64,000 nucleotides of DNA from Alphaproteobacteria bacterium UBA828 (GTDB taxonomy: Bacteria; Pseudomonadota; Alphaproteobacteria; UBA828): contig DBHM01000013.1 of the NCBI GenBank assembly GCA_002296185.1, positions 5,273-69,272 on the forward strand. Direction: 5' to 3'. This document shows, in pieces, positions 12,735-39,986 of the stretch. The notes beneath the pieces were generated by a model, which did not search any database, was not told where the DNA came from, and worked only from the letters and a program-made list of their open reading frames with translations. Made by a program: the position numbers and the translations under genes. Numbering within the stretch: the first letter of the stretch is position 1; every line of letters starts with the position of its first letter.

Positions 12735-12749
12735 AGCGTCATTCCTTCC

Positions 12750-14804
12750 TTATGCACCGGTCGGCCGGATGATGATATTTCCAAATTTATCTACCTTACC
12801 GACATGGTCTGGCAGAATTACTGTAGTTGAATCCATCTCAGTAACAACTGCAGGTCCAGTTATACAGTTTCCTGCCTTTAATTTTGAACGATCATATAAA
12901 CTTGCTTCTTGATCTTTTCCATCGACAAAGACTGTGCTTTTCTTAACTAAGGCCTCTGATGGATCATCGTTACCAACATCTAGAGTTCCTGCTTCAACTA
13001 CAGTTTCAGGGCCCTGCACTATTGCTCTGATGGTAACAATCTCGTGTTCTACCTCTAGAGCAAATGTAAACAGCTGAGTGTGTTCTTCGTCAAATCTTTT
13101 AGCAAGATCTGCAAGACCACCTGAATTGAATTCTTCTTCTGAATATACAATTGGCAGGACAAGTCCTTGACCATGATACCTTAGATCTATTTCATATTGA
13201 ACTGTTTGCTCGGATTCAGATATTCCTGCATCTGCTATTGCTACTCGTGCAGACGAAGCTAGTTCATTCATAACATTCTTAACTTCATTATCATCAGTTT
13301 CAGAATATTTACGGACTAAGCTTCGAGCTGTTTCATTAGTTAGCCTTGTTGTTGCATCACCATAAGCACACAAAACTCCAGGAGAAGGTGGAATGATAAC
13401 AGGCCAAGAACTCATTAACTTTCCAAGTGCATTACCATGTAATGGACCCGCACCACCGAAAGCTATAAGAGCGAAGTCTCGGGGATCAAATCCTTGCTCG
13501 ACAGAGACAAGTCGAAGAGCACCAAACATATTCTCATTTACTATATCTATAATTCCAGCTGCAGCTTCTTTAAGCCCCAGGTCAAGACCATCTGCGATAG
13601 ACTGAACAGAACTTTGAGCAGCATTTACATCCATTTTCATATCCCCACCAACTAATTCATCGGGGAGAAAGCCTAAAACAACATTAGCGTCTGTCACAGT
13701 TGGCTGGTCACCACCTTTGCCATAAGCAGCAGGACCAGGATCTGCACCTGCGCTTTGGGGGCCAACCCTAAGGGCTTTTGTCAATTCTGGCACATGAGCA
13801 ATGGAACCTCCACCAGCACCAACCGTTCGTACGTCGAGAGAGGAGGCACGGACAGTTACGTCGCCTACTGTAGTTTCACGTCTTCGACGAGCTACACCAT
13901 CCTGAATAAGCGCAACATCAGTTGAAGTTCCACCCATATCTAGAGTGAGTAAATTTTCAAATCCTGCGTTCCTTGCAACCCACAGAGCACCAGAAACACC
14001 TCCTGCCGGTCCACTCATAAGAACATTGACAGGGGATGATTGAGCAGCTTCTACAGATGCTAACCCACCGTCTGAACGCAAGATGTGAAGATCCGCTTTG
14101 ATTCCTCTTTTATTTAACTCTGAATCGAGATTAGACATGTATAGAGAAACCTTAGGGGAAATATATGAATTGGCTACAGTTGTAACTGCTCTTTCATACT
14201 CATACATTTCAGGAAGAACTTCAGATGAGATTGAAACAGGAACATTAGGTAGTAATTCCGCAGCAATCTCCCTAACTCTTTCTTCTGTTTTACCACTAAC
14301 GTAAGCATTCATTAAACTTACTGTAAGGGCCTCAATTCCTCTTTCTTTTAAATATTGAATCTTTTCTTTAAGGTCTGCCTCATCTAAAGGCCTGACCACT
14401 TCACCATTAGCACTCATACGTTCTTTTGCTTCAACCGTAAGCTCCAAAGGCGCTAAAGGTTCAGGTTTTGGCCATATAATCCATCCAGCTAAGAGACCAG
14501 GAACAAAAGACCTAGCTATTTGCAACACCTGACGATAACCTTCAGTTGTCACTAAACCAACATTTGCACCCTTTCCTTCTAGGACAGTATTGGTAGCAAC
14601 AGTTGTACCATGCATCACATGTGTTATTGTACTTGGATCAACTCCAGCATCTTTACAAACTCTTTCTATTCCATTTAATACACCAATCGATGAATCAGCA
14701 GGCGTTGACGGCACCTTTGCACGATACGTCTTGCCTGACCCTTCATCTATCAATAAAAGATCTGTAAACGTGCCTCCCACGTCTACACCCAAACGATAAG
14801 CCAT
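12750..14804 (-). CDS. Hydantoinase A/oxoprolinase family protein (HyuA-like, set 1)
   Basis: 684 aa. N-terminal GVDVGGTFTDLLL, internal LDMGGTSTDV and GAGGGSIA blocks of the ASKHA-type hydantoinase A family. Confidence 0.9.
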   Translation of the reverse strand: MAYRLGVDVGGTFTDLLLIDEGSGKTYRAKVPSTPADSSIGVLNGIERVCKDAGVDPSTITHVMHGTTVATNTVLEGKGANVGLVTTEGYRQVLQIARSFVPGLLAGWIIWPKPEPLAPLELTVEAKERMSANGEVVRPLDEADLKEKIQYLKERGIEALTVSLMNAYVSGKTEERVREIAAELLPNVPVSISSEVLPEMYEYERAVTTVANSYISPKVSLYMSNLDSELNKRGIKADLHILRSDGGLASVEAAQSSPVNVLMSGPAGGVSGALWVARNAGFENLLTLDMGGTSTDVALIQDGVARRRRETTVGDVTVRASSLDVRTVGAGGGSIAHVPELTKALRVGPQSAGADPGPAAYGKGGDQPTVTDANVVLGFLPDELVGGDMKMDVNAAQSSVQSIADGLDLGLKEAAAGIIDIVNENMFGALRLVSVEQGFDPRDFALIAFGGAGPLHGNALGKLMSSWPVIIPPSPGVLCAYGDATTRLTNETARSLVRKYSETDDNEVKNVMNELASSARVAIADAGISESEQTVQYEIDLRYHGQGLVLPIVYSEEEFNSGGLADLAKRFDEEHTQLFTFALEVEHEIVTIRAIVQGPETVVEAGTLDVGNDDPSEALVKKSTVFVDGKDQEASLYDRSKLKAGNCITGPAVVTEMDSTTVILPDHVGKVDKFGNIIIRPTGA

Positions 14805-18140: not shown

Positions 18141-19265
18141 TTAAAAAGTCTCCCCAATAAGATTCTGCTCACCTAAAGCTTTTTCCATAAAATGCACATC
18201 TGCCGGTGACCAGGTTGCCGTCACGTCATCACCTACATTAGCAGGATTTGTAAAATACTCCCTATCTTCTATTACTGCGACAATCTGGTCAGCTTCTGGG
18301 CGATCTATAGTTACCTTGACCCAATTACCCTGATATTCAACGGCATTTACTTTTCCACTTAAAGCATTACCCCTGTCTTCTTGTCCCTCGGTCCCAAGTA
18401 AGTGTACTTTATCACGTCTAACACCAAAGCTTAAATCTGAACCTTCTTTCTTACCTTGAGCGGGAACCTGATAAACTTCGCTACCAGGACCCTTTAGTGT
18501 TTCCATATTATTCTTTGAATCCCTTACAGCACCAGAAAAAACATTCCACCCACCCATAAACTCTGCAACATAGGTTGTTTTAGGCAAATCATAAATTTCA
18601 CGTGCTGAGCCTGCTTGTTCAATACGTCCTGTTTCCATAACAACAACTAAGTCTGCTAATGCTAGCGCCTCAGGTTGTGTATGAGTTACATGTATAAAGG
18701 TTATACCTAAATCTAGCTGAAGGCGCTTAACTTCAGCCCTCATCTGTAATCGAAGATATTCGTCTAATGCTGATAACGGCTCATCAAGTAATAATACCTT
18801 AGGATTTGTAATTAGAGATCTTGCTAAAGCAACACGTTGTTGTTGGCCTCCAGATAACTGGGCCGGCATCCTAGTAGCAAGTGGCTCTAATTGAACTTTT
18901 TTAAGAACTTCATATGCCTCTTGTTGCCTTTGCTCACGACCTATGTTTTTCATTTTCAAACTAAAAGCTACATTATCAAGAACGGTTAGATGGGGAAATA
19001 ATGCATAGCTCTGGAACATCATAGAAGTTCCGCGTTTTCCTGTAGGAACACCAATAACAGATTGGCCTCCAATAGTAATGTCACCTTCAGTTGGAACTTC
19101 ATGTCCTGCAATCATTCTAAGTAAAGTAGTTTTTCCGCATCCACTCGGACCAAGCAAACAACAATAAGATCCATCAGGGATTGAAAGATTAATATTTTCT
19201 ACTGCATTATTATCACCAAAAGCTTTGGTAATATTAGTAATAACAACTTCACCAGGTCCTGACAT
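18141..19265 (-). CDS. ABC transporter ATP-binding protein (PotA-like)
   Basis: Walker A GPSGCGKTT, signature LSGGQQQRVALARSL, Walker B LLLDEPLSALD. The C-terminal TOBE-like extension is as in PotA/MalK. Confidence 0.9.
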   Translation of the reverse strand: MSGPGEVVITNITKAFGDNNAVENINLSIPDGSYCCLLGPSGCGKTTLLRMIAGHEVPTEGDITIGGQSVIGVPTGKRGTSMMFQSYALFPHLTVLDNVAFSLKMKNIGREQRQQEAYEVLKKVQLEPLATRMPAQLSGGQQQRVALARSLITNPKVLLLDEPLSALDEYLRLQMRAEVKRLQLDLGITFIHVTHTQPEALALADLVVVMETGRIEQAGSAREIYDLPKTTYVAEFMGGWNVFSGAVRDSKNNMETLKGPGSEVYQVPAQGKKEGSDLSFGVRRDKVHLLGTEGQEDRGNALSGKVNAVEYQGNWVKVTIDRPEADQIVAVIEDREYFTNPANVGDDVTATWSPADVHFMEKALGEQNLIGETF

Positions 19266-19293
19266 TTATCGTCCTATTAAAAAAATAGTTGTC

Positions 19294-19316
19294 TGAGGTA
19301 AAAATTGATTACCTCA
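19294..19316 (-). promoter_or_regulatory. 5'-UTR hairpin upstream of the ABC ATPase gene
   Basis: TGAGGTAA-7 nt-TTACCTCA is a perfect 8-bp stem. On the minus strand it is followed after 8 nt by a T7 run (19279-19285), then an AGGA RBS and the ATG at 19265. Confidence 0.4.
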
Positions 19317-19624
19317 TATTTTAAATTTATATATAGAGAATTAATTCTAGCTGTATCAAGTAAAAACAGACAATTCTTTATATTTTATATATTATAAAAC
19401 TTAATATTGCTAAATTATATTACCTTTTGAATTTACTCTACAAGCTAGAAGTCTCCCGTTTAGCATGGTATTAAGATAGAAATATATCCGCTTTATTAGT
19501 ATTTTTTCATATAAACTACAACTATATAGCTGTTTTTTTTCACCCTGACAATTTTTTGTTGTCTTGGGTAATGAATATTATTTTCAAATACCTAAATATC
19601 AAGATTTCAAGGAAGAAATATAAA

Positions 19625-20797
19625 ATGCCAAAACCTGGACAATCAGAAATTAGCGAACAAGACGAACGTATTATTCTGGAAAATATTGACAGATTTATCG
19701 AGAGAGATGTTAAACCAAACGTACATCAACTTGAGAAAGACGACATATATCCAATTGAAATTGTTGATAAAATGAAGTCTTTAGGTTTATTCGGTGCGAC
19801 TATATCTACTGAATATGGAGGTCTAGGTCTTCCAGTAACAACCTACTCCAAAATTGTGGAAAAAATTTCAGGTGCTTGGATGTCGGTTAGTGGAATCATT
19901 AATTCTCACCTAATTATGGCAGCAGCAATAGAAAGGCACGGTACAGATGAGCAAAAGTCTCATTATTTACCTCGTTTTGCTACAGGAGAAATGAGAGGAG
20001 GCATTGCTCTCACTGAACCTGATTGCGGGACAGATCTTCAATCCATTAGGACAGTGGCTAAAAAGAAGGGAAATAGTGGTTATATTATTAACGGTTCAAA
20101 AATGTGGATTACAAATAGCCAAGAAGGTCATGTCGTAGCCTTACTTGTGAAAACAGACCCAAATGCAGAGCCTCGCCACAAAGGAATGAGCCTATTTCTT
20201 GCTGAAAAAGGAGATGGTTTCAAAGTGAGCCGTAAACTAGAAAAACTCGGCTACAAAGGTATAGATAGTTGTGAATTAGTTTTTGATGATTATTTTGTTG
20301 ATTCAGATAAACTTATTGGTGGTGAAGAAGGAAAAGGTCTCCAACAAGTTTTAGGTGGACTCGAGCTTGGCCGAATTAATGTGGCAGCAAGAGGTGTGGG
20401 GATTGCACAAGCTACCCTTGATGAGGCAGTTAAATATAGTCAAACCCGTAAGACCTTTGGCAAACCAATATGTCAACACCAAGCAATACAATTGAAACTC
20501 GCTGAAATGGCTACACGGCTTGAAGCTGCAAGATTATTAACCGATAGAGCTGCTGAAGCTTTTGCAAGTGGACAAAGAGCAGATATGGAAGCCGGTATGG
20601 CAAAACTATTTGCTACAGAAGCTGCCATGGAAAATGCACTTGATGCAATGAGAATTCATGGAGGCTATGGATACTCAAAAGAATACCCAATAGAGAGAAT
20701 GTTTCGTGACGCTCCATTATTATTAATTGGTGAGGGTACAAACGAGATCCAAAAAATAATTATTGCCCGCCAGTTAATTGAAAGAAATCCTACATAA
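19625..20797 (+). CDS. Acyl-CoA dehydrogenase
   Basis: GIALTEPDCGTDL, WITNS and IGEGTNEIQKIIIARQL (catalytic Glu region) motifs. Start moved from the TTG at 19556 to the ATG at 19625, behind AAGGAAG. Confidence 0.9.
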   Translation: MPKPGQSEISEQDERIILENIDRFIERDVKPNVHQLEKDDIYPIEIVDKMKSLGLFGATISTEYGGLGLPVTTYSKIVEKISGAWMSVSGIINSHLIMAAAIERHGTDEQKSHYLPRFATGEMRGGIALTEPDCGTDLQSIRTVAKKKGNSGYIINGSKMWITNSQEGHVVALLVKTDPNAEPRHKGMSLFLAEKGDGFKVSRKLEKLGYKGIDSCELVFDDYFVDSDKLIGGEEGKGLQQVLGGLELGRINVAARGVGIAQATLDEAVKYSQTRKTFGKPICQHQAIQLKLAEMATRLEAARLLTDRAAEAFASGQRADMEAGMAKLFATEAAMENALDAMRIHGGYGYSKEYPIERMFRDAPLLLIGEGTNEIQKIIIARQLIERNPT

Positions 20798-20825
20798 TTA
20801 ATACATAAACTTAACGGAGTCTCGT

Positions 20826-22037
20826 GTGAATAACGAACACCTTCCTTTAAAAGGTCTAAAGATTATTGCCCTTGAACAATATGGGGCAGCACCTTTCGGC
20901 ACAATGTTTCTAGCAGATCTTGGCGCTGATGTTATTAAAGTAGAGAATCACCTAACAGGGGGAGAGATGGGACGTCATGTCGTGCCATATTCCGAAGACG
21001 GAGACAGTCTTTTTTTTCAAAGTTTTAGTGCCAATAAACGATCGATAGGTCTAAATATCAAAAGTTCAAATGGTAGAAAGATATTAGACAAATTAGTGTC
21101 TTCTTCTGACGCTCTAATTAATAATCTTCGAGGAGATCTTGTTAATAAATTAGGATTAAATTATAAATCCTTTTCTAAACATAAGCCTGAAATTGTGTGT
21201 GTTCATCTTTCTGCCTATGGAAGGAACAATTCAAGAGCCTCTTGGCCTGGACTAGATTATGTAATGCAAGCAGAAGCAGGATATCTTTCTGTTACTGGCG
21301 AGCCCTCGTCACCTCCAACTCGTTTTGGACTTTCTATAGTAGATTATCAAGCAGGACTTACAGCCGCATTGGCACTATTAGCAGGAATACTTGGTGCACA
21401 AAGAACTGGAAGGGGCCAAGATTATGATGCAGCCCTTTTTGATGTTGCAATGACCAACCTAAGTTATCCTGCAACCTGGCATCTAACTGAGGGATATAAA
21501 CCTGAACGTATAGCAAGATCAGGACATCCATCACTTGTTCCGAGTGAATTATATAAAACTAAAAATGGCTGGATATTTATTATGGCAAATAAGGATAGTT
21601 TTTGGCCAAAACTTGTTACAGCTATTGAAAAACCTCAGTGGATAAAAGATCCAAGAATCAGTGATTTCAAGTCTAGATTAAAAAATCGTCAGCTAGTTGT
21701 GGAATTACTGTCAGAAGTTTTTATTAAAGAAAATACAGAATATTGGCTAAGTAAACTTACAGGCCTACTTCCATGCGCCCCAGTAAACAATATAGAATCC
21801 GCATTATCTAATAAGTTTTCCGATGAAAGAATGATAACACAAAAGATATCTCATCCAAAGTGGCAGAACATGAAAGTAGTACGACAACCAATACTTGCTG
21901 ATGAAAATGTTTTACCTCGCAAAAAGGCGCCTTTACTTGGAGAAGATACAATCAATATATTAAAGGAGATCGGCTATGAAGAAGAAGAAATTAATACATT
22001 GTTAAGCGATAAAACAATATTTTCTCAAATAATCTAG
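20826..22037 (+). CDS. CaiB/BaiF family (class III) CoA-transferase (paralogue 2)
   Basis: 403 aa. LKGLKIIALEQYGAAPFGTMFLADLGADVIKVE N-terminus. GTG start behind a GGAG RBS. Confidence 0.85.
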   Translation: MNNEHLPLKGLKIIALEQYGAAPFGTMFLADLGADVIKVENHLTGGEMGRHVVPYSEDGDSLFFQSFSANKRSIGLNIKSSNGRKILDKLVSSSDALINNLRGDLVNKLGLNYKSFSKHKPEIVCVHLSAYGRNNSRASWPGLDYVMQAEAGYLSVTGEPSSPPTRFGLSIVDYQAGLTAALALLAGILGAQRTGRGQDYDAALFDVAMTNLSYPATWHLTEGYKPERIARSGHPSLVPSELYKTKNGWIFIMANKDSFWPKLVTAIEKPQWIKDPRISDFKSRLKNRQLVVELLSEVFIKENTEYWLSKLTGLLPCAPVNNIESALSNKFSDERMITQKISHPKWQNMKVVRQPILADENVLPRKKAPLLGEDTINILKEIGYEEEEINTLLSDKTIFSQII

Positions 22038-22056
22038 AAAATTAAATTAAGATTCT

Positions 22057-22084
22057 ATAAATATATATTCATATATATATTTAT
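22057..22084. terminator. AT-only hairpin between convergent genes
   Basis: ATAAATATATAT-TCAT-ATATATATTTAT is a 12-bp stem. It overlaps the stop codon of the minus-strand PrpD-like gene. Weak because it is all A-T. Confidence 0.35.
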
Positions 22085-23481
22085 AGATGCCCCTCACATT
22101 TAAAATAATCTGTGATAGTACTAAATTTACAAACGTCATCAATATTTAGAACGGCATTTATAGCAGATTCATAATTTCCTTTTGATAAAACTAGGCTAGC
22201 ATTTTCTTTGAATTTACTAATTATCTCTTTGGGCTCTAAAGGAGTAACATCAGCTCCCCTATTGATCTCTTCTCTTTGAATAAAAACTTCATTATTTTTA
22301 GTGGTAACTTCTATTTCTCCGGAAAAGTATTTAGGATATAAAGAGCCCTCCATTGGTTCACAAAAAACTTTATCACAAACACTAATAACCTGAGGCTCTG
22401 TATATGAAGACTTTTCAAGATCAGCAAGTGTAAAACGATCACGAACAATTGCACTAGCTACGAGATAAGGTAAACTAAATTGAGCCTCGTATCCACTACC
22501 CGGTCTCCGTTTTGCAGATAAAGGTTCACCGACAACAGGTAGGCTATCTTCCGCAACTCTCGCAACAACTTTTTTTACGTCTTCTGAAGACAAACTATGC
22601 TCATTAAATAATTTACGTGTAGCATCAATACATGAATGAGTTAAATGACATGCTGGATAAGGCTTAACTCCTACACTTAACATTTCCCATTCTTTACCCA
22701 AACCCTTAGTTACAATCCCAATATCTACTTCTATATCTTCACTAGAGCAGGTATTATATACACCATACCGTCCTTCATAAGGGCTTAACACACCTTCAAA
22801 ACCATGCTTACACATAGACACTGCAGTAAGGCCACAAACCGCAGCCCAACCTGGATGCATTCGTTTTGTCCATGCTCCTTCTTTTAAAAATTCAAGATTT
22901 CCAGAAGCCATACTATAGACAGTGCCTTGTGCTTGAACTAACTCTTTAACACTTAATGAAGCTAAACAACCTGCTGCTATTGTTGAACCAAATGCACCTA
23001 TTAAACCTGTAGGATGAAAACCCTTCTTATGAAAACCCCCTTTAGCAGCCATTCCTATACGGGAACTGCACTCAATGGCTGCAATATAAGCAGATAATGC
23101 TTTTTTTCCATCAACACTATGACGCTTTGCTGCGCTTAAAACAGATGGAAGAGCACTTGCTGTTGAATGAATCACACCTGCAACATGAGTATCATCAAAA
23201 TCTAAAGAATGAATCAGAAAACCGTTCATTAAAGCAGACTCTCGATACGGTAGACCAACGTTCGATCCTATTATGGGGTAATCTCCCTCCCCTCCAATAT
23301 CAAGAATTCCAGAAAGTGTTTTTTTACTATACGTTTGCTTTGTAGACGCAAGAGCTATTCCAAAAGCATCTAATATATGCAATTTAGCACGGTGAATAAC
23401 TGCCTCAGGAATATCTTCATATCTTAACGTTATCGCAAATTCTGCAAGTACTTCAGATATTGATTTGGTAGAATCATTCAT
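22081..23481 (-). CDS. MmgE/PrpD family protein (paralogue 2)
   Basis: 466 aa. LDAFGIALAS...LDFDDTH...GFHPTGLIGAFG blocks of the PrpD fold. Confidence 0.85.
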   Translation of the reverse strand: MNDSTKSISEVLAEFAITLRYEDIPEAVIHRAKLHILDAFGIALASTKQTYSKKTLSGILDIGGEGDYPIIGSNVGLPYRESALMNGFLIHSLDFDDTHVAGVIHSTASALPSVLSAAKRHSVDGKKALSAYIAAIECSSRIGMAAKGGFHKKGFHPTGLIGAFGSTIAAGCLASLSVKELVQAQGTVYSMASGNLEFLKEGAWTKRMHPGWAAVCGLTAVSMCKHGFEGVLSPYEGRYGVYNTCSSEDIEVDIGIVTKGLGKEWEMLSVGVKPYPACHLTHSCIDATRKLFNEHSLSSEDVKKVVARVAEDSLPVVGEPLSAKRRPGSGYEAQFSLPYLVASAIVRDRFTLADLEKSSYTEPQVISVCDKVFCEPMEGSLYPKYFSGEIEVTTKNNEVFIQREEINRGADVTPLEPKEIISKFKENASLVLSKGNYESAINAVLNIDDVCKFSTITDYFKCEGHL

Positions 23482-23577
23482 GGACTCTTAAGGATCCCCT
23501 AAAATGTTAGGATGCAATTTGGAAAATAGCATAATTCAATATTTAAAATTTTTTTTAATTTATGTTCTGTCTCAATT

Positions 23578-24096
23578 TTAATAATTAACCTTATCATCAA
23601 CAGCATGACCCATCTTTGGAATTAACATAGCTCGCTCAAAACTAATAACCTGAGCACCCTCCTGATTACATCCGATACTCCGGATCTTAACTATACCTTG
23701 AGTTGGTCGAGAATTTGATTCTCTCTTCTCCAATATTTTAGATGAAGCATAAATAGTATCACCGGCGAATACAGGTGAAGTTAATTTGATATCAGTCCAC
23801 CCAAGATTAGCTATAGCCTTCTGACTTGTGTCACTTACGGACATTCCAGCAACAATAGATAATGTGAGACAACTATTTACTAAAGGTTTTCCAAATTCAC
23901 TTGCAGCAGCATACACTGAGTCAAAATGTATTGGGTGTTGGTTCATTGTTAATAGAGTAAACCAACTATTGTCCACCTCACTTATGGTTCTACCTGGACG
24001 ATGTTCATAGATATCTCCCACGACAAAGTCCTCAAAATAACGACCATAGCTCTCTCGATAAGTTTTATCAGATACTTTTTTTCCTAAAGCAACCAT
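23578..24096 (-). CDS. MaoC-like (R)-specific enoyl-CoA hydratase/dehydratase (hot-dog fold)
   Basis: 172 aa. FEDFVVGDIYEHRPGRTISEVDNSWFTLLTMNQHPIHFD resembles itaconyl-/mesaconyl-CoA hydratase-type MaoC proteins. Confidence 0.8.
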   Translation of the reverse strand: MVALGKKVSDKTYRESYGRYFEDFVVGDIYEHRPGRTISEVDNSWFTLLTMNQHPIHFDSVYAAASEFGKPLVNSCLTLSIVAGMSVSDTSQKAIANLGWTDIKLTSPVFAGDTIYASSKILEKRESNSRPTQGIVKIRSIGCNQEGAQVISFERAMLIPKMGHAVDDKVNY

Positions 24097-24142
24097 AAAT
24101 TAAACTCCTAAAGATAATTCATATAAAATATATTATGTTGAT

Positions 24143-25231
24143 TTACTCCACTCTACTAGAGGCTATATCATGAGCAAATACAAACATGTCCTCTAAATAT
24201 TCTTCAAAACGACCAAATCGAGGATCCTTTGTGGTACCTCTTTTATATTGTGCATTGATTTGTAAAAATACAACTGCAAGTTTAAACTGTGCTAGAACTC
24301 TATAAAACCTGATATCACTTGTATCTCTACCACTTTTTTCAGAATACATACGAATAACATCTTTTCTTTTAGGAAACGAAAGACACGAAGTTGGCATTTG
24401 CTCAATTATTTGCATTGCCTTTGGATCATCAGGCTCAACCCAATAACTTAATAAAGTACCTAGGTCAAAAAGTGGATCTCCTCTTGATCCCATATCCCAA
24501 TCAACAACGGCAATAGGTGTTAAATCTTTTGGATCTAATAAAATATTATCCAATTTAAAATCATTATGAAGTAAAGTAGGTAATCCATCCTTCACCTGAT
24601 TCTTCTCCAACCAATTCACAACTTCTATAGCTATATTTGGAGGGCTATCATCTGATCCTAGAAAAAGTCTTTTTTTCCATCCCTTAACCGCTCTTTCGAG
24701 AAAACCCTCAGGCTTTCCAAAATCCCCAAGCCCAACAGTCTCAGCATCAACATTATGTAGGTCTACAAGTATATCGATAAGAAGTTCAGTTATTTTAACA
24801 GGAGCATCTTTAATTAAAGCTACTTCTTCAGGAAGATGACCACTAATAGTATTTCCTTTTCTATATTCCATAATTAAAAAATGATTGCCTAAAATACTGT
24901 GATCTGGACAGTAATGAAAACTTTTTGGGGCTAAGGGAAATTCTTTCCACAATTTACTTAGAATATGATGTTCTCTTTTCATATCGTTTGCACCAGGTGG
25001 TATCTTTCCCATCGGTGGTCTTCTTAAAACTGACAAGGATCCATTAACTATTATTTGGTAATTAAGGTTACCAAAACCAGATGAGAACTGTTTTGGTGCA
25101 TTAAGTTCTGGATCAAAACTAAGGCCCTCAGATTGTAGATAGCATTGTAGAGCTTTCCAATCTTGAGCAGTCTCAGAATCCTTATCTAAAAAAACTGGGT
25201 CCGCGCCCCAAACAGAAACCATAAAGATCAC
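24143..25231 (-). CDS. Phosphotransferase enzyme family (APH/choline-kinase-like) kinase
   Basis: 362 aa. LLHNDFKLDNILL (catalytic loop, HxDxxxxN) and VVDWDMGSRGDPLFDLG (DxD metal loop). Confidence 0.75.
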   Translation of the reverse strand: MIFMVSVWGADPVFLDKDSETAQDWKALQCYLQSEGLSFDPELNAPKQFSSGFGNLNYQIIVNGSLSVLRRPPMGKIPPGANDMKREHHILSKLWKEFPLAPKSFHYCPDHSILGNHFLIMEYRKGNTISGHLPEEVALIKDAPVKITELLIDILVDLHNVDAETVGLGDFGKPEGFLERAVKGWKKRLFLGSDDSPPNIAIEVVNWLEKNQVKDGLPTLLHNDFKLDNILLDPKDLTPIAVVDWDMGSRGDPLFDLGTLLSYWVEPDDPKAMQIIEQMPTSCLSFPKRKDVIRMYSEKSGRDTSDIRFYRVLAQFKLAVVFLQINAQYKRGTTKDPRFGRFEEYLEDMFVFAHDIASSRVE

Positions 25232-25316
25232 CTAACGTTATTTTCTCTTATAGGGAAGTCTTAATATTACAAATTCATCGCGTAAGCACCAGAATATCGC
25301 TCAAGAAATTCAAAAA

Positions 25317-26222
25317 TTATCTATTCTTAAGGTTAATGAAGAAAACTCCCATAAATAAAGGCACTAAAGCAATTAGTACCCATATACTCAGCCTTTCTCC
25401 GAAGAAAGCCATCCCCCATAAAATTCCTGTAATAGGAGTTATAAAATTAACGCTTGTAAAAAATACAGGGCCCATAGTCCGAATTAGCTCAAGGAAAAGA
25501 TATATACCTAATGCCTGCAATGGCGCCGACATAATTAGTGCCCAATCTGCATCATCCATTTGACCACTAAACCACCACCAATCACCCGAACCCGCCATAA
25601 AAACAAATAAAAATAATGATGTGGCAAGGAAAAAACCAGCTGAGAATTGGATTGCGTCACTTTTAGGTGGAGGAAGTAATGCAGCAGATAATGCACTTGT
25701 TGCATACCCGAGTGGTGCAAGCAAAACTAAGATAACCCAACCAACAAGATCAGGGCTTGGTAAGCTTGCTTCAGGAATCACTATAAGCAAAACTCCACCT
25801 ACACCAACGATAAAACCAAATGATTTTAATGCTGTTAGTCTGTCTAACCTGAATATTACAGCCCCTAAATAAGTTAAAATTGGTGCTAAGGCTACTAACA
25901 TACTAGTTATACCTGCAGGCACCCCTTCACTTGATGCAATTGTTACAGCAATATAGGGAATACCAAACCCTGATATTCCGGTCATAAAATAACCTCGCAG
26001 ATGAGGAATACTAATACCAGGGTAGGATCTTTTAGGTAGACACATAATCATCATAATTATACCTGCACCTAAACTCATCCAAAATGAAAATGCAAAAGCA
26101 GGTATCCCACCACCTACCCCTACACCGACTAAAGAGTAAGTTAGACCATAGGCAACTCCGGTTATAAAAAGCATAAAGAGAGGAAGAATAATTGGATTTG
26201 GATGGATTCCAAAGAAATTCAT
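25317..26222 (-). CDS. DMT-superfamily (EamA-like) transporter
   Basis: 301 aa, about 10 hydrophobic segments, two-repeat architecture. Family call comes from topology and composition only. Confidence 0.7.
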   Translation of the reverse strand: MNFFGIHPNPIILPLFMLFITGVAYGLTYSLVGVGVGGGIPAFAFSFWMSLGAGIIMMIMCLPKRSYPGISIPHLRGYFMTGISGFGIPYIAVTIASSEGVPAGITSMLVALAPILTYLGAVIFRLDRLTALKSFGFIVGVGGVLLIVIPEASLPSPDLVGWVILVLLAPLGYATSALSAALLPPPKSDAIQFSAGFFLATSLFLFVFMAGSGDWWWFSGQMDDADWALIMSAPLQALGIYLFLELIRTMGPVFFTSVNFITPITGILWGMAFFGERLSIWVLIALVPLFMGVFFINLKNR

Positions 26223-26350
26223 TAACTTAGCCCTTTAGCTTACTTATTAATTCCGATATCAATTATGCCTATAATTTTATAAAAGATTATATGCAATATG
26301 ATGATTTATATTATATCTAGTCAATTAATAAACTAAATTTGGAGATTATA

Positions 26351-26740
26351 ATGAAATTACTTAACAAATCTGAACTGATAGAACTAGTAGAAAATAAATA
26401 CTTTGCAAATGTAGATGGTAAGAATCTTGATGAGACAGTTTCTTGTTTTTCAAAAAATGCAATTCTGACAGTTCAAACCGCACAAACCACTCATAATGGC
26501 CATGATGAAATTGAGAGGATGTTCAATGATTTTATGTCATCGACAAAAGTTATATATCACGGTGACTTTACTCACGTAGTAGACGAAGAAAATCAATGTA
26601 TAGCTTCACAGTTTCTAGCTCGTAATGACTATGATGATAAGCCTACAGTCTCTATGAGAAACTGTAACTTCTTTGTTATTGAAGAAGGTGTCTTTAAAAA
26701 TGTTACGATTTATATGAGTGACGAAAACCCATTAGTATGA
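26351..26740 (+). CDS. NTF2-like / SnoaL-like small protein
   Basis: 129 aa from the ATG behind a TGGAG RBS. The size and the pattern (YFANVDGKNLDE...F..NA......H.G.DEI..F) fit the SnoaL/NTF2 cone fold. Weak call. Confidence 0.5.
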   Translation: MKLLNKSELIELVENKYFANVDGKNLDETVSCFSKNAILTVQTAQTTHNGHDEIERMFNDFMSSTKVIYHGDFTHVVDEENQCIASQFLARNDYDDKPTVSMRNCNFFVIEEGVFKNVTIYMSDENPLV

Positions 26741-26876: not shown

Positions 26877-27500
26877 ATGTCATCAGATACCGAAATATAT
26901 AAAAAACAAAATTTTGGTAATACAATTGGGATGGGCAAGAAGCCAGCCCTATTAATAGTAGATTTTGTGAATGGTTTTAATGACGAAAATGCTTTTGGTG
27001 GAGGTAATATTCCACAAGCAATTAAAATTACTCAAAGTTTACTGGAATTCGCACGCAACCAGAAGCTTCCGATTGCACATACTCGTGTTGTTTTTGCAGA
27101 CGACGGATCAGATCTTAATTTAATGTACAAAAAAGTTCCAAGTCTTAAAACACTAACGGAAAACTCAAAAGAGAGTCAAATTGTTCCTGAGCTAACACCT
27201 AATAATGGTGAAATCATAGTTCGTAAAAGAGTTCCCTCAGCTTTTTTTGGCACTGATTTAGCCCCACAACTTACTTTACTTGGAGTTGATACAATTATGA
27301 TAACAGGTTGCACAACCAGCGGTTGCGTTAGAGCTAGTGCACTTGATGCAATGTGTTGGGGCTTTATACCCATAGTTATTACAGATGGCTGCGGTGATAG
27401 AGCTATTGGACCTCATGAGGCAAATTTATTTGATCTTGGCCAAAAATATGTTGATCTAATGACAGCTAGTGAAGCTATGGAAAAAATAAGGAATAAATAA
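26877..27500 (+). CDS. Isochorismatase-family cysteine hydrolase (paralogue 2)
   Basis: 207 aa. PALLIVDFVNGF and IMITGCTTSGCVRASALDA motifs. The stop overlaps the next start (TAATG). Confidence 0.8.
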   Translation: MSSDTEIYKKQNFGNTIGMGKKPALLIVDFVNGFNDENAFGGGNIPQAIKITQSLLEFARNQKLPIAHTRVVFADDGSDLNLMYKKVPSLKTLTENSKESQIVPELTPNNGEIIVRKRVPSAFFGTDLAPQLTLLGVDTIMITGCTTSGCVRASALDAMCWGFIPIVITDGCGDRAIGPHEANLFDLGQKYVDLMTASEAMEKIRNK

Positions 27501-28528
27501 TGAAAGCTATTGTTTTACATGAGTTCGGAGGAATTGAAAAACTTTTATATCAGGACATAGAAACACCTAAACCAGGTCCTGGCCAGGTTTTAGTAAAGAT
27601 CCATGCTAGCGGAATAAACCATTTGGACCATGACCTCCGTGAAGGAATTTCTGGGATTGATCTAAACTTTCCCCATGTAATTGGTGTTGAAGGTGCAGGC
27701 GAAGTAGCAGAACTTGGAGATGGGTCGAATAGATTTTCTATTGGAGATCGAGTTGCAATTCATTTTGCACAAGGAGATCCCACAAGTGATATGTGGCTAT
27801 CTGGACTTGATGGAGTTGACTTTACCCATGGAAGGATCGGTGCATCCCGTTGGGGAACTCATGCTGAATTTTGTGTAGTTGAAGAAACCTCACTAATTAC
27901 AATTCCTACTAATATATCATACGAAAAAGCAGCAGCTTCAATTATTGGTTTAGGAACTGCTTGGCATATGACTGTTAATCTGGGTCAAATCCAAGCCGGA
28001 CAAAAAATTCTAATTAATGCAGCAGGCAGTGTTGTTGGATCCAGTGCTATCCAAGTAGCAAAACTCCATGGCGCACACATAATCGCTACCGTTGGAAGCG
28101 AACAAAAAATGTCAAAGGCAAAAGATATAGGTGCAGATGTGGTTTTAAATTACTCCTCTGATAATATATTTGAATCTATACAGGATATTACCAATGGGAA
28201 GGGTGTAGATTTAGTTATTGAAAGCGTAGGTGGAGATATATTTGCACAAAGTGTCAAGTCAGTGTGCCTAAATGGTCGTTTAGTAACATGTGGAGCTCAT
28301 GCTGGAGAAACAGTCCCTATAAATATTATAGAATTATTTCGTAAGCATATGATGATACATGGGAGTCATCTTGCTGGGCGAAAAGAAATACGGCATATTC
28401 TCGGACTTATTGCTGATGACCAATTAACACCAGTTATTGATTCTACTTTTCCACTTAGTAAGATTGTAGAGGCAGCAAAGAAAACTGCAAATCGGGATGT
28501 TTTTGGTAAAATGCTTTTGCTGCCCTAA
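27500..28528 (+). CDS. Zinc-type alcohol dehydrogenase / quinone oxidoreductase (MDR superfamily)
   Basis: 342 aa. GINHLDHDLREG, GVEGAGEVAELG and NAAGSVVGSSAIQVAKLHGA (Rossmann) blocks. Confidence 0.85.
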   Translation: MKAIVLHEFGGIEKLLYQDIETPKPGPGQVLVKIHASGINHLDHDLREGISGIDLNFPHVIGVEGAGEVAELGDGSNRFSIGDRVAIHFAQGDPTSDMWLSGLDGVDFTHGRIGASRWGTHAEFCVVEETSLITIPTNISYEKAAASIIGLGTAWHMTVNLGQIQAGQKILINAAGSVVGSSAIQVAKLHGAHIIATVGSEQKMSKAKDIGADVVLNYSSDNIFESIQDITNGKGVDLVIESVGGDIFAQSVKSVCLNGRLVTCGAHAGETVPINIIELFRKHMMIHGSHLAGRKEIRHILGLIADDQLTPVIDSTFPLSKIVEAAKKTANRDVFGKMLLLP

Positions 28529-28540
28529 TTACAGATATAT

Positions 28541-30328
28541 TTATTTCTTTAAATTATGTTGCCGTACTTTATCCGTAGCATTTATATCAACACTACCATC
28601 GTCATTTAGAATGACGCCATATACGTCTGTTACTGTTTGCTCTGAAATCCATCTATCATTTAGGTCATCCACCACTAAATTAACATCTCTCTCATTAGGG
28701 TCACCATAACCACCACCCCCACAAGAATAAGATACAATTGTATGACCCTGTGGTATAATTGCTTGCTCACATGATTCTAAAGGATGTAAATCGCCATTGG
28801 GATCTCTTCTAAATTGGTTAGCGCAGCCACCTGGCCCACCACCCCGCACTCCTTCTGCTGGTGTTTCGTTACCATCGCTTACATAACCTACTTCCATTTC
28901 ACCATCGGTAGGACCAAACTCACAAAAAACTCCAGCCCCCCCTCTAGTTCTTCCTGCTCCACCAGAATCAGTAACAAAATGTCTTCCTTTAACCAACATC
29001 GGAAAGCGCATTTCATCAAGTTCTATACTATCAAGGTAGGATAAACCTGCATTTCCTATATGACCTAATGTCAACCAGGCATCATTATGAGGCGCTGCTG
29101 CGCCACCACCCCAACCAAGAAATATTTGATTCACATAAGGGCCTCCAGTCATCTCACTAGATCCAGAGATTACGCCAATACTGGGCGGGATTATTGCGGC
29201 AGCAGCAGCCATACCATAACCATCCCCCAACTCAGCAATAGCACGCTGCGTAGCATTACCTACTCTATCAGCGATATTAGTAGTAGCAACTGAACAACTT
29301 GTAGGATGCTTTGGTATACCTACAACACAATTCTCCCTTAATTTAATATCTACTCTACGGAAAGAACCTTGATTAGTTGGAACATCCGCAGGAACAGAAT
29401 TAAAAACGCCTAAAAGAGCAGAGGTTTCTGCACACGCTTGGCTAAGGTTCAGACCGCATGGAAGGCAATCAGGGTTATCTCGCAGGTCTACTTCGATCAT
29501 TGCGGATTCTGTATCTACTTTTACTTCGACTTTAATATCGACACCTTCTTCCATTCCAGGAAATGGGTCATGACGGGTATGAACAACCTTTGTACCACCA
29601 GGCATATTTCTAACTGCCGATATCATAAGTTGCTCACTGTAATCGAACCATTGTAAAGCGAACTGCTCAAGAGTTTCCCAGCCCACTTCAGAACCTAATG
29701 CTAGTATTTCTCTTTCACCTATTCGAGCAGCACCAAGAGCAGCTAAATAATCGCCCCACCACTGATCAGGAACTCTGATACGCATTTTACACATTCGAAT
29801 AATATCATCTATATCCTTATAATTTTCTTGGATACGAATAGCAGGAAAGATTAGAGCTCCTTCCTGATAAACATCTTTAGCTCCACCGTGATATGTTGTG
29901 GGAATTGAATTACCACAATCAGCCTGATGTGCTTTTGCAACCATTGTAAAACGATGAATTCCATCATCATCAATTACAGGTACTAGAGTAGTATGATCAG
30001 CAGCATGTGACCCACCGTGGTATGGAGAATTATGCATAAAAGCATCACCCCTCCGAAGCTCAGGGTGAAATTCTTTCATTGATGCTGCCATCATATCAGC
30101 ACCACGGAGTACATGAATTGGTAGACTTTCATTAACAGATAATAATGAGTTGTCTCCAGTAACTAAGCAGCAAGAAAAATCTCTTGCACTATTTAGCACT
30201 CCAGACCTTCCAGTCCTAAGTAGCGTATTAGACATTTTGCGGCATATAGCTTCCATTCGCTTATTCAAGACCGCCATTTGCACACCATCTAACTTACGTT
30301 CTTTTTTTGCCTTTAATTCAATAGACAT
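28541..30328 (-). CDS. Hydantoinase B/oxoprolinase family protein (HyuB-like, set 2)
   Basis: 595 aa. C-terminal CGGGGYGDPNERDV. It lies 20 nt downstream of HyuA set 2. Confidence 0.9.
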   Translation of the reverse strand: MSIELKAKKERKLDGVQMAVLNKRMEAICRKMSNTLLRTGRSGVLNSARDFSCCLVTGDNSLLSVNESLPIHVLRGADMMAASMKEFHPELRRGDAFMHNSPYHGGSHAADHTTLVPVIDDDGIHRFTMVAKAHQADCGNSIPTTYHGGAKDVYQEGALIFPAIRIQENYKDIDDIIRMCKMRIRVPDQWWGDYLAALGAARIGEREILALGSEVGWETLEQFALQWFDYSEQLMISAVRNMPGGTKVVHTRHDPFPGMEEGVDIKVEVKVDTESAMIEVDLRDNPDCLPCGLNLSQACAETSALLGVFNSVPADVPTNQGSFRRVDIKLRENCVVGIPKHPTSCSVATTNIADRVGNATQRAIAELGDGYGMAAAAAIIPPSIGVISGSSEMTGGPYVNQIFLGWGGGAAAPHNDAWLTLGHIGNAGLSYLDSIELDEMRFPMLVKGRHFVTDSGGAGRTRGGAGVFCEFGPTDGEMEVGYVSDGNETPAEGVRGGGPGGCANQFRRDPNGDLHPLESCEQAIIPQGHTIVSYSCGGGGYGDPNERDVNLVVDDLNDRWISEQTVTDVYGVILNDDGSVDINATDKVRQHNLKK

Positions 30329-30348
30329 TTTGCGTTCCTATAAAATTT

Positions 30349-32418
30349 CTAAGGAGCCGGTTCTATGACCAGGCTGCCACTCTTCATTTTCGAAGCTTTT
30401 GCTTCCGGATCAATGACCACAGTTGTAAAAGAGGATTCTATTATCGCTGGGCCTGTAATAAAAAGTTCACTATCCATTGATTCAAATTTATGGACCGGAG
30501 TATCGATAAAACCAACACCATCAAAATAAGCTTGTCTAAATTCCTGATTAGACTCAACTTCACAATCTTCAACTAGCTGAAATGCATGCTTATCCCTTAG
30601 TCTACAACTAATATTTGCTCTCCATCCGACAAATTCTATATCCGATTGCTTATCAGAAATAGCAAATAAATCTTCATGAGTAGAATGAAAATCAGAATGT
30701 AATTTAGCTAGGTCATCTTCATTAGATATCAAACCGCCTCTTAAAGGTACCTCGATTTCCCAAATTTGACTTGGATAACGAGCTTCTGCGGTAAATTCAA
30801 TAGTATGATCAATACATCCTTCACCGGGTCCACTTAAGAATAACTTACATTGACTTAAAAGATTATCAAGGAGGCCATTAACACCTTTAAAATCAAAGTT
30901 TGAGGTATCTGTAAATAAAGTTGCGCTATACTCTCCTCTTAGATCAGACATTAAGGCACCAGCTGCAGAAAGTGTTGCAGACGTATCTGGAATAATTACT
31001 TGCTTACATCCTAATCTTTGCCCTATCGCGACCATATTTAAACCCGCCGCTCCTCCTCCACCAATTAATACAGCATCTCTAGGATCTATTCCTTGATTAA
31101 CTGTAATATCCTCAATAGCATGAACCATATTCTCGGTAGCGACTTTTAGAACTGCATAAGCAGCTTCTTTTGTTTCTAGTCCAAGTTTATCAGCAATACC
31201 TGAATTAATTGCTTTCAATGCGGCTTTATGATCAAGGTGCATTGCACCACCTAGAAAGTAATTAGGGTCAATCCATCCTAAAACGACTGAGGCATCTGTT
31301 ACAGTCGCCTCTGTACCGCCCTTTCCATAGCAAACAGGTCCCGGAACAGCTCCAGCACTTTGAGGGCCTACATGAAGCAACCCTCCTTCATCAACCCATG
31401 CTATACTTCCACCTCCAGCACCTATACTTTTAACATCAACTGCGGGAAATCCTGTCATATGGCCACGATAAGGTTGACCAATCCAAGTTTCTCTAGTCCA
31501 TGGAATTCTGCCGCCTCTAACTAGACTAACATCGAATGTAGTGCCCCCTGTATCTGCAATAATTGCAGTATCTACCCCCGTATCATGGCTAGAATAATAA
31601 CGACCTGCTACAGGAGCCATAGCTGGCCCTGAATTAATAGAATGAATGGGAGATTTAGCCATATCAGCTGCATCCATTGCACCACCCTGAGTCGTTACAA
31701 CCAAAACACGGCCATCGAAACCAGCATCTTTTAAACGCTCTTTAAGCCCACCAAGATAACTACCCATAAGGGGTTTTAGTGAAGAATCGATAACAGTTGA
31801 TGATGCTCGCCTATATTCTCTTAGAGAAGGATTAATTTTATGGGAAAGGGTATAAGGAATACCAGGTAAATGCTCTTCAATCAGTTTCCCAATTTTATTT
31901 TCGTGAATCGGATTAACAATTGACCATAATAAACATACACCAATTGCTTCTACTTTTTCTTGCCTTATACTTTCTAATGTTTCTATTAAATGATTCTCAT
32001 CGAGAGGCTCAATTATTCGACCGTCATAAGCAACACGCTCTTGAATTTCATAAGTTAAGGATCGCGGAACATATGGCTTAGGAAAATCAGCAGTAAAATC
32101 AAAAGGCTCAGCTCTCCCGCCCTCTCTAAAAACTAATACATCCGGATGTCCCATTGTTGTCAAAAAAGCTGTCTTTGCAGTGTTATTGGTTACAATAGCG
32201 TTAATAGCACGCGTAGTGCCGTGAATAAGCATATCTCCCTTTAATAAAAAATCTCTATCAGACAAACCAAAATCGTTTGCAGCTAAATGAAGTGTATCGA
32301 GAACACCTTTTATAGGGTCATCAGGTGTTGTAGAGGATTTATAAAGACGAACATCACCATTAACATCTTCTACAACTAGATCTGTAAAAGTACCACCTGT
32401 ATCAACTGCAAATCTCAT
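30349..32418 (-). CDS. Hydantoinase A/oxoprolinase family protein (HyuA-like, set 2)
   Basis: 689 aa. MRFAVDTGGTFTDLVV, ADTGGTTFDVS and GAGGGSIAWV. Confidence 0.9.
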   Translation of the reverse strand: MRFAVDTGGTFTDLVVEDVNGDVRLYKSSTTPDDPIKGVLDTLHLAANDFGLSDRDFLLKGDMLIHGTTRAINAIVTNNTAKTAFLTTMGHPDVLVFREGGRAEPFDFTADFPKPYVPRSLTYEIQERVAYDGRIIEPLDENHLIETLESIRQEKVEAIGVCLLWSIVNPIHENKIGKLIEEHLPGIPYTLSHKINPSLREYRRASSTVIDSSLKPLMGSYLGGLKERLKDAGFDGRVLVVTTQGGAMDAADMAKSPIHSINSGPAMAPVAGRYYSSHDTGVDTAIIADTGGTTFDVSLVRGGRIPWTRETWIGQPYRGHMTGFPAVDVKSIGAGGGSIAWVDEGGLLHVGPQSAGAVPGPVCYGKGGTEATVTDASVVLGWIDPNYFLGGAMHLDHKAALKAINSGIADKLGLETKEAAYAVLKVATENMVHAIEDITVNQGIDPRDAVLIGGGGAAGLNMVAIGQRLGCKQVIIPDTSATLSAAGALMSDLRGEYSATLFTDTSNFDFKGVNGLLDNLLSQCKLFLSGPGEGCIDHTIEFTAEARYPSQIWEIEVPLRGGLISNEDDLAKLHSDFHSTHEDLFAISDKQSDIEFVGWRANISCRLRDKHAFQLVEDCEVESNQEFRQAYFDGVGFIDTPVHKFESMDSELFITGPAIIESSFTTVVIDPEAKASKMKSGSLVIEPAP

Positions 32419-37195: not shown

Positions 37196-37876
37196 TTATT
37201 TAAGTACTCTTAACACTTCATCTGAAGACATGACATCTCCAAATTGCTGTATGAATGTTTCCAAGGTTACTAAATGCTCTTCGTCAGAAAGAGCCGCAAG
37301 GCAATCTGATACCATAACAGTTTTAAAATCTAGCATCATAGCATCTCTTCCAGTTGCATCACAGCAAACATTAGTTTTAGTACCTGCAATCAAGAGAGTA
37401 TCTAGATTATTACTTCTAAGGTAACGTTCTAGGTTGGAAGATCCTGAGATTAAAGCGCTATATCTATTTTTAGTTAGCTTAATATCAGAAGATAAAATAT
37501 CCAGCTCATGCCAAAAGTCTTGGCCCTCTTCACCCGCTCGTAATCCCTTAATAGTTTTATCCTTCATATCATCTGAAACAAAGTAATCAAAAAAATTCGA
37601 CCAATCTGTTGAGTCACCGAAATCTTGATTTGCGTGAGCTATCCAAATAATTGTACCACCCTTAGAACGAATATTTTCTGCGAGTTTATTTATATTTGAA
37701 ACTATATTACGACCCATAGGAACTTCAACAGCTCCCCCTGGTTTCAGAAAAGTATTCTGCATATCAATGACTACAAGAGCGAGATGTTGAGGGGATAAGT
37801 GGTCGAACAAATGAAACTTACCACGCCTGGAAACAACTCGATCGATAATATTTTTTCTGATAGCAACCTGATGCAT
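37196..37876 (-). CDS. Isochorismatase-family cysteine hydrolase (paralogue 3)
   Basis: 226 aa. LALVVIDMQNTF and LLIAGTKTNVCCDATGRDA motifs. Last gene of the HyuAB set 3 operon (7-nt gap). Confidence 0.75.
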   Translation of the reverse strand: MHQVAIRKNIIDRVVSRRGKFHLFDHLSPQHLALVVIDMQNTFLKPGGAVEVPMGRNIVSNINKLAENIRSKGGTIIWIAHANQDFGDSTDWSNFFDYFVSDDMKDKTIKGLRAGEEGQDFWHELDILSSDIKLTKNRYSALISGSSNLERYLRSNNLDTLLIAGTKTNVCCDATGRDAMMLDFKTVMVSDCLAALSDEEHLVTLETFIQQFGDVMSSDEVLRVLK

Positions 37877-39979: not shown

Positions 39980-39986
39980 TGTTACC

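Follow-up and report, generated by a model that had tools for sequence, protein, structure and literature searches.

Bacterial kinases of the type found in ACAD10 and ACAD11 are known as partners of an LvaC-type acyl-CoA dehydrogenase (ACAD). In the DNA analysed here, a 64-kb stretch (the window) of contig DBHM01000013.1 from Alphaproteobacteria bacterium UBA828, a kinase of this type is found without an LvaC-type partner, in an operon with CoA pathway enzymes of the C5-dicarboxylate type. The question raised by this locus is whether the kinase and the dicarboxylate enzymes serve one pathway. The functions assigned to ACAD10/11-type kinases are recent and disputed, with 4-hydroxyacyl-CoA kinase set against alkylglycerol kinase. 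If the two modules cooperate, the kinase family would gain a new substrate class together with a new form of phosphate elimination, and there would also be a handle on the function of a PrpD subfamily with a His in place of a catalytic Tyr. Otherwise, the locus warns usefully that the co-occurrence of gene families can mimic pathway logic. Our preferred answer, which is held tentatively, is a composite route that processes branched or hydroxylated short dicarboxylates via CoA esters and has recruited a hydroxyacyl-CoA kinase. An original prediction, made from the letters of this stretch, had put forward a separate C5/C6 (hydroxy)dicarboxylate route, which is plausible.

The open reading frames (ORFs) of the window were listed and searched with Pfam and NCBIfam profiles. 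All six genes of the two convergent operons that had been claimed were recovered, at the coordinates and on the strands given for them, and the six profile matches are strong and beyond chance:

19625-20797, plus strand, ACAD (four Acyl-CoA_dh Pfam domains, E 1e-50 to 1e-23)
20826-22037, plus strand, family III (CaiB/Frc-type) CoA-transferase (Pfam CoA_transf_3, E 1e-102)
22081-23481, minus strand, MmgE/PrpD-family protein, last gene of the minus-strand operon (Pfam, E 5e-56 and 1e-27)
23578-24096, minus strand, single-domain MaoC (R)-hydratase resembling RipB/Ich and mesaconyl-CoA hydratase (Pfam MC_hydratase and MaoC, E 1e-25)
24143-25231, minus strand, APH-fold kinase, probable start at 25222 (Pfam, E 6e-36)
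25317-26222, minus strand, EamA/DMT transporter, first gene of the minus-strand operon (Pfam EamA, two repeats, E 2e-18)

The kinase is likely to start at the ATG at 25222, which gives a protein of 359 aa that matches database proteins. The ACAD and CoA-transferase genes are separated by 28 bp, the gaps within the minus-strand operon are 96, 46 and 94 bp, and the convergent stop codons lie 43 bp apart. The window as a whole is AT-rich (G+C content about 37 %) and has a single ACAD gene and a single APH gene. Its nearest relatives are marine alphaproteobacterial metagenome-assembled genomes and Tara contigs. Scans for consensus promoters and terminators did not rise above shuffled sequences and no intergenic terminator was predicted, and Rfam and tRNA scans of the entire window gave no matches.

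The kinase and the dehydrogenase

On sequence comparison, the kinase is assigned to the LvaA/ACAD10-11 kinase family. Its matches in the PDB were 9O56 (E 7e-75, 41 % identity), 3DXP (E 2e-36) and mouse ACAD11 (E 9e-32, 29 % identity), and the next match had an E value of only 0.0025. In the study of the ACAD11 structure, D220 and N225 are catalytic, and R86 and R176 contact CoA in the ACAD11 model (PMC12440821). These residues align with D224, N229, R86 and R180 of the window kinase. No variation is seen at any of the four in an alignment of 93 family sequences, ACAD11 among them, and the same is true of the metal-binding Asp (D244) and of R70 and E87, the Arg-Glu pair from strand beta-3 and helix alpha-C. 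The best PDB matches are kinases associated with ACADs, and the protein does not group with the aminoglycoside, homoserine or fructosamine kinases. The link to acyl-CoA-associated kinases in the original prediction is upheld.

The family comprises 4466 proteins at E values of 1e-30 or below. We retrieved 80 genome loci around kinase homologues and typed the neighbouring genes. An ACAD of the ACAD11/LvaC type lies directly downstream of the kinase homologue in 36 of these loci. The counterparts of R626, H634 and R637 are all present in 35/35 of the downstream ACADs, and 33/35 have the catalytic Asp. This ACAD is often followed by genes for an SDR, a CaiB-type transferase, an AMP-ligase and a nitroreductase. 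In bacteria, such loci represent the split form of ACAD10/11 and LvaA-LvaC, and proteins from Pseudomonas putida and Burkholderia pseudomallei have demonstrated kinase and ACAD activity (PMC11342911). The window kinase groups in a single clade with its relatives at 53-66 % identity in a neighbour-joining tree, and this clade is nested among kinases with an adjacent LvaC-type ACAD. The nearest relatives outside the clade are found in operons made up of the kinase, an LvaC-type ACAD, an SDR, a CaiB-type transferase and an AMP-ligase.

The ACAD in the window is of a different type. At the positions of ACAD11 R626, H634, R637 and D753 it has G, V, R and E, and the same four residues are present in 13/13 orthologues. 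With Glu as the base and two of the three phosphate-binding residues missing, the sequence indicates that it is not an LvaC/ACAD10-11-type enzyme. The IGEGT motif with its catalytic Glu, which had been described as ordinary, is indeed present. Identity to LvaC-type ACADs is 28 %, compared with 52 % (441 bits) to FadE3 of Mycobacterium smegmatis (PDB 4IV6). The closest relatives are FadE3 and the ACADs of clusters in Azospirillum, Pseudosulfitobacter and Caballeronia that are described in the next section. The Arg that is retained (the R637 position, in helix G) aligns with Arg-421 of the Paracoccus (2S)-methylsuccinyl-CoA dehydrogenase (PdMCD, PDB 6ES9), whose position allows it to bind the distal carboxylate (PMC5798300). 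PdMCD and FadE3 share the helix-G 'AAR' arginine and the catalytic Glu with the window ACAD. However, Arg-421 is the only one of the carboxylate-binding arginines of PdMCD to be kept, as Arg-252 is replaced by Ser and Arg-376 by Lys. PdMCD is 39 % identical to the window ACAD, which lacks the 170-residue N-terminal extension. A lone HCMR tetrapeptide near position 63650 was dismissed as a chance match because the frame is riddled with stop codons.

The proposed precedent in the P. putida lva operon (LvaA, LvaB, LvaC, the reductase LvaD and the ligase LvaE) and in mammalian ACAD10/11 is thus only half borne out. The kinase, with its catalytic and CoA-contacting residues, agrees with lva, ACAD10/11 and split pairs such as that of B. 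pseudomallei Q63VL0, but the ACAD fails the LvaC signature (HCMR, R626 and Asp) and phosphate elimination is left without a candidate. An LvaB-like small ORF, which had been suggested as something to look for, was not found in the cluster; the gaps are at most 96 bp and every ORF of at least 30 aa in them overlaps a longer gene. Neither an LvaD-type SDR nor an LvaE-type ligase is encoded within the cluster.

Two further contexts of the kinase family were observed. In a basal subclade that includes SAR116 genomes, a divergent class II aldolase of the HpaI/GarL type adjoins the kinase and is conserved (L026, 9092-9910; L081, 7717-8583; also L031, L051 and L073), these aldolases being about 70 % identical to one another. 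Aldolases of the HpaI/GarL type cleave 4-hydroxy-2-oxo acids. This gene, matched as HpcH family, had been considered as a link to citramalyl-CoA lyase, and this was rejected as an HpaI/GarL-type aldolase is unrelated to Ccl. In locus L096 (3542-7846), a kinase homologue with 53 % identity is divergent from an apparently decayed lva-like operon, the remnant of which consists of a 217-aa APH fragment, an SDR, an ACAD split over two ORFs and an AMP-ligase.

Relationship to five-gene, probable dicarboxylate clusters

The remaining proteins resemble those of clusters that do not include a kinase. Related clusters were found by tblastn searches of plasmids with the PrpD-like protein as the query, and three contain five families in common:

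Azospirillum sp. TSH58, plasmid p04: CoA-ester lyase, then, divided from it, MaoC-PrpD-ACAD-CoA-transferase-GntR
Pseudosulfitobacter pseudonitzschiae, pSMR1-4: CaiB, then, divided from it, MaoC-PrpD-ACAD-GntR-lyase
Caballeronia sp. SBC1, pSBC1_2: MaoC-PrpD-ACAD-CaiB-lyase

TRAP dicarboxylate transporters adjoin two of the three. The Cupriavidus necator C39 plasmid (H11) and Diaphorobacter (H13) were discarded as reference clusters, as each has only an isolated PrpD homologue. Relative to loci L090 and L091, the window ACAD is 69-70 % identical and the MaoC protein is 60-61 % identical. The PrpD-like protein is 43-46 % identical to those of L090, L091 and the Caballeronia cluster, and the CoA-transferase is 49 % identical to that of the Azospirillum cluster, to whose ACAD and MaoC the window proteins are 70 % and 60 % identical. 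The helix-G Arg and catalytic Glu of the ACAD are also shared with the three clusters. All three of the kinase-free clusters examined include a CitE/HpcH-type lyase, which is RipC/Ccl-like, and usually a GntR regulator. In contrast, the lineage of the window lacks that lyase and regulator and has the EamA transporter and the LvaA-type kinase in the operon. This amounts to a loss and a gain.

The best PDB matches of the PrpD-like protein are B. subtilis 'IRG1' and IDS epimerase. The residues for 1,4-dicarboxylate coordination and the catalytic His (H85, D88, H99, H150, K198 and K266 in the numbering of IDS epimerase) are all conserved. However, the second catalytic base, Tyr145 of IDS epimerase or Tyr148 of Msi, is replaced by His in the window protein and in 12/12 of its subfamily relatives. 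This His-type subfamily spans the window protein (22081-23481) and the homologues in L090, L091, L092 and L093, and the three five-gene clusters have the same His. The second MmgE/PrpD paralogue in the window (6702-8111, minus strand) has Ile at the Tyr145 position and Glu at D88. The MaoC protein matches NCBIfam RipB_Ich (NF038241) over its full length and this is by far its best family, but the score of 234 bits is under the cutoff of 340 bits. For the CoA-transferase, the best NCBIfam models are the succinate-glutarate and succinyl-CoA:mesaconate transferases, both scoring far under cutoff. A carnitine (caiA-caiB) assignment was rejected, the scores being 163 against a cutoff of 540 for CaiA and 113 against 413 for CaiB.

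The other precedent in the original prediction was the itaconate cluster of Pseudomonas aeruginosa. In the Pseudomonas and Cupriavidus cluster, the ACAD is a (RS)-methylsuccinyl-C4-CoA dehydrogenase (Gonner et al. 2025, PMC12290011), and the PrpD-family protein is a (S)-(R)-methylsuccinate isomerase that acts only on the free acid (PMC12290011). The authors accept a protein as Msi at a hidden Markov model score above 550 (PMC12290011). Four of the five families (Ich, Mcd, Msi, Ict and Ccl) in P. aeruginosa PA0878-PA0883 and the C. necator cluster are represented in the window, and in both the PrpD gene adjoins the ACAD gene. The window differs in having no Ccl and in the additional kinase and transporter. 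Sequence identity is low, at roughly 28-36 % to PA0879, PA0881 and Msi over fragments of machine-read DNA, and is therefore only a rough guide. Individually, for C. necator Msi a stretch of about 100 residues aligned at about 28 % identity in a tblastn comparison with DNA machine-read from a supplement, with reading errors, and PA0881 gave no hit; for PA0879, three short fragments (30-56 residues) of such DNA aligned at 36-47 %. The homology and the composition in families are real, but the window proteins do not appear to be orthologues and are best placed with a sibling cluster. Because of the low identity, the replacement of Tyr by His and scores below the RipB and RipC cutoffs, the ACAD, MaoC, PrpD and CaiB genes of the window are best described, on sequence grounds, as a version, lacking the lyase, of an uncharacterised cluster that is sibling to the itaconate/methylsuccinate one. 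It probably has the logic of PA0878-PA0883, in which CoA is transferred, the free acid is isomerised, and dehydrogenation and hydration follow; in the five-gene clusters, homology also predicts C-C cleavage, with some short dicarboxylate as the substrate.

A different lyase is present elsewhere in the window. A second family III CoA-transferase gene (3811-5010, plus strand) is directly followed by an HMG-CoA-lyase-family gene (5021-5935, plus strand), which scores 334 bits with NCBIfam, over the cutoff of 246 bits, and is about 14 kb from the cluster. In loci L087 and L095, genes for an HMGL-like lyase, CT_A_B/CT_C_D proteins and a CoA-transferase are found 3-6 kb from the ACAD gene. Because the lyase gene follows a CoA-transferase gene in the window and an HMGL-like lyase gene is near the ACAD gene in L087 and L095, the product of 5021-5935 is a candidate for C-C cleavage, the step for which the cluster lacks an enzyme. 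A PrpB-like gene of the PEP-mutase family is located at 9859-10743 (plus strand).

Conservation and competing explanations

The arrangement around the kinase recurs in 14 loci in addition to the window, in three variants (the slash separates the convergent operons):

kinase-MaoC-PrpD / CaiB-ACAD: the window and L001-L003
kinase-PrpD / CaiB-ACAD: L004, L007-L010, L012 and L097
kinase-MaoC / ACAD: L011, L087, L095 and L013 (truncated)

MaoC is missing in 7/14. The ACAD gene is convergent to the kinase operon in 13/13 loci that reach that far, with kinase identity down to 53 %, and insertions of other genes upstream do not alter it. The co-conservation of the two operons, on which the original prediction depended, is therefore found in every locus that extends far enough, yet it is confined to one lineage. 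PrpD and CaiB are either jointly present (10 loci and the window) or jointly absent (3 loci). This fits a role of both in handling the free acid, though given the tree it amounts to one or two evolutionary events. EamA is immediately upstream of the kinase in 10/14 of the related loci, that is, wherever the gene was called or detected (L011 and L013 could not be resolved), and is absent from loci with the kinase that accompanies an LvaC-type ACAD. The gaps between EamA and the kinase are 19-60 bp in the related loci, and in L097 the EamA stop codon overlaps the kinase start by 4 bp. Overall, one strand carries EamA, the kinase and MaoC/PrpD, spaced by 11-96 bp or overlapping by 4 bp. The lineage is marine and recurs in Tara and JGI metagenomes.

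From the observed gene identities, families, active-site residues, spacing and conservation in one lineage, we infer the substrate class, a kinase acting on a CoA ester of the pathway, and a way out for the phosphate. In the composite route, a short dicarboxylic acid, probably a branched one, would be activated through transfer of CoA by the CoA-transferase, and the PrpD-like protein would interconvert isomers of the free acid. The ACAD, with its Glu base and an Arg that may hold the distal carboxylate, would oxidise the CoA ester to a 2-enoyl-CoA, which MaoC would hydrate. The DMT transporter and the LvaA/ACAD10-11-type kinase would have been joined into the MaoC-PrpD operon, with the kinase presumably phosphorylating an acyl-CoA that belongs to this substrate family and carries a hydroxyl group, and loss of the phosphate would feed the same enoyl-CoA or hydroxyacyl-CoA intermediates. 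C-C cleavage would fall to a lyase encoded elsewhere, possibly that at 5021-5935. A specific version is mechanistically coherent but improbable, namely that a gamma-hydroxylated dicarboxylyl-CoA is phosphorylated and the phosphate is then expelled by the Glu-type ACAD, the hotdog hydratase or the PrpD-like protein to give mesaconyl-, itaconyl- or glutaconyl-CoA. Examples of kinase substrates would be 2-(hydroxymethyl)succinyl-C4-CoA, possibly derived from paraconate-type lactones, and 2-hydroxyglutaryl-C5-CoA. If phosphate is indeed eliminated without LvaC, this would be a new enzyme solution and, for 2-hydroxyglutarate, an oxygen-tolerant alternative to the radical dehydratases.

A number of observations weigh against the composite route, and several of them favour its main rival, in which two unrelated modules, EamA with the kinase and a decaying remnant of a dicarboxylate cluster, are merely juxtaposed and have stayed adjacent by descent from a common ancestor. 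The kinase is linked to these genes in a single monophyletic lineage, and the whole 20-kb neighbourhood (Zn-ADH, isochorismatase, ABC ATPase and hydantoinases) is syntenic; conservation is therefore unspecific and cannot separate function from ancestry. The dicarboxylate set is variably eroded: 7 loci have no MaoC, 3 have neither PrpD nor CaiB, and none has the lyase; in the window, neither tblastn with three lyase queries nor Pfam found a CitE/HpcH lyase. The promoter regions (19266-19624 and 26223-26338 in the window) have no motif in common above shuffled sequences in the window, L001, L004 and L087. The kinase clade is without clade-specific active-site changes and differs from the LvaC-linked kinases in only three conservative (hydrophobic) positions, so there is no sign of adaptation to dicarboxylates, and kinases at 52-55 % identity are found in unrelated gene contexts. 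An ACAD of the LvaC/ACAD11 type is absent from the 64-kb window and from within 10 kb of all of the related loci, which leaves the step after phosphorylation without a candidate enzyme. None of the six proteins (0/6) reaches an NCBIfam equivalog cutoff, and the substrate therefore cannot be read from annotation models. On the other side, the kinase and MaoC/PrpD genes are on the same strand and 11-96 bp apart in every locus, with the EamA gene even running into the kinase start in L097. EamA-kinase-PrpD and CaiB-ACAD are intact in L004 and L097 despite several kb of genes upstream, and the ACAD is strongly constrained (73-86 % identity across the lineage). We regard juxtaposition as somewhat less likely than the composite route, and it is the rival to be taken most seriously.

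A true lva/ACAD10-11-like route for 4-hydroxy acids, with the phosphate removed by the Glu-type ACAD (the helix-G Arg serving as anion binder), MaoC or the PrpD-like protein and with MaoC yielding a 3-hydroxyacyl-CoA, would suit the kinase family and its residues. The minimal set in the variant loci (EamA, kinase, MaoC and ACAD) mirrors LvaA, LvaC and hydration, and the ACAD Arg aligns with one of the three phosphate binders, R637. We nevertheless consider this route improbable, since the ACAD has no R626 or H634, mutation of either of which abolishes ACAD11 activity (PMC12440821), and has Glu rather than Asp. All three binders are kept in 35/35 of the LvaC-type partners. Moreover, the same ACAD type (70-78 % identity) is found in kinase-free clusters, so its ancestral job is ordinary dehydrogenation, and the cluster has no lva-type reductase or ligase. 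Slightly less probable still is an ordinary itaconate/methylsuccinate cluster (Ict, Ich, Msi and Mcd) with the lyase elsewhere and an irrelevant kinase. The composition in families is that of the five-gene cluster, many such clusters lack one of the five genes (PMC12290011) and the best NCBIfam match of MaoC is RipB/Ich. However, the identities to PA0879, PA0881 and C. necator Msi, the loss of the Msi Tyr148 and the RipB/Ich score of MaoC, all given above, disagree with it, and the closest relatives are of a distinct type, whose lyase and hydratase also score under the RipC and RipB cutoffs. Finally, the kinase might act on a small molecule other than a CoA ester, such as an alkylglycerol-like alcohol, with CoA esters as mere activators and no connection to acyl-CoA catabolism. 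In a 2026 preprint, prokaryotic homologues including a protein from Caldalkalibacillus thermarum phosphorylate 1-O-alkylglycerols and are stimulated by acetyl-CoA (PMC13596139), and for this reason the substrate class of the kinase is contested. From the residue numbering (D214, K216, N219, D234 and E236) we infer that 9O56 is this protein; the closest solved homologue of the window kinase would then be one reported as a 1-O-alkylglycerol kinase, which also counts against the composite route. The two kinases share the HxDxK catalytic motif, the strand beta-3 Arg and the DW(E/D) metal-binding motif, but 9O56 branches outside all of the proteobacterial loci in the tree. Against this explanation, members of the family have LvaC-type ACADs, ligases and CoA-transferases as neighbours in 36 loci, both CoA-contacting arginines are conserved, the window locus has no link to ether-lipid genes, and the B. 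pseudomallei homologue (Q63VL0) stands in for the ACAD10 kinase on 4-hydroxyacyl-CoA (PMC11342911). We consider this last explanation very unlikely.

Neighbouring genes

The genes on either side of the two operons were identified with Pfam and NCBIfam:

26339-26740, plus strand, SnoaL-like protein, divergent syntenic neighbour
26877-27500, plus strand, isochorismatase-family protein, divergent syntenic neighbour
27500-28528, plus strand, Zn-ADH/quinone-reductase-family protein, divergent syntenic neighbour
18141-19265, minus strand, PotA-like ABC ATPase, divergent from the ACAD gene

These four may belong to the same pathway. The pair of Zn-ADH and isochorismatase genes is upstream of EamA-APH in all of the related loci with enough flanking sequence, and the PotA-like ABC ATPase gene adjoins the ACAD gene in 11 of them (including L001-L004, L007-L009 and L011). 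Inserted genes separate the pair from EamA-APH in L004 and L097. The inserts (L004, 4525-8954; L097, 4933-7010) are located between SnoaL and EamA-kinase and encode a TetR protein, an SRPBCC/polyketide-cyclase-like protein and a second EamA, and that of L004 also holds a molybdenum enzyme of the xanthine dehydrogenase family. They hint at N-heterocycle catabolism and a possible local regulator.

Enzymes that open lactams or amides are unusually dense around the cluster. The window contains four HyuA/HyuB (hydantoinase/oxoprolinase) pairs (10812-14804, 28541-32418, 38156-42107 and 46294-50050), three isochorismatase-family hydrolases (3036-3668, 37196-37876 and that at 26877-27500 listed above) and two amidases (8429-9832 and 56511-57908). 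In L087 (2015-3637) and L095 (1028-2647), at a distance of a few kb from the kinase cluster, a gene for a fusion of about 540 aa between APH and a zeta-toxin/AAA_33 P-loop kinase adjoins genes for hydantoinase B and an amidohydrolase. A further ORF in the window (43476-45680, plus strand; 734 aa) combines E1_dh, Transket_pyr and Transketolase_C domains and corresponds to a fused alpha-beta E1 of a 2-oxoacid dehydrogenase; it is followed by a glyoxalase-family gene.

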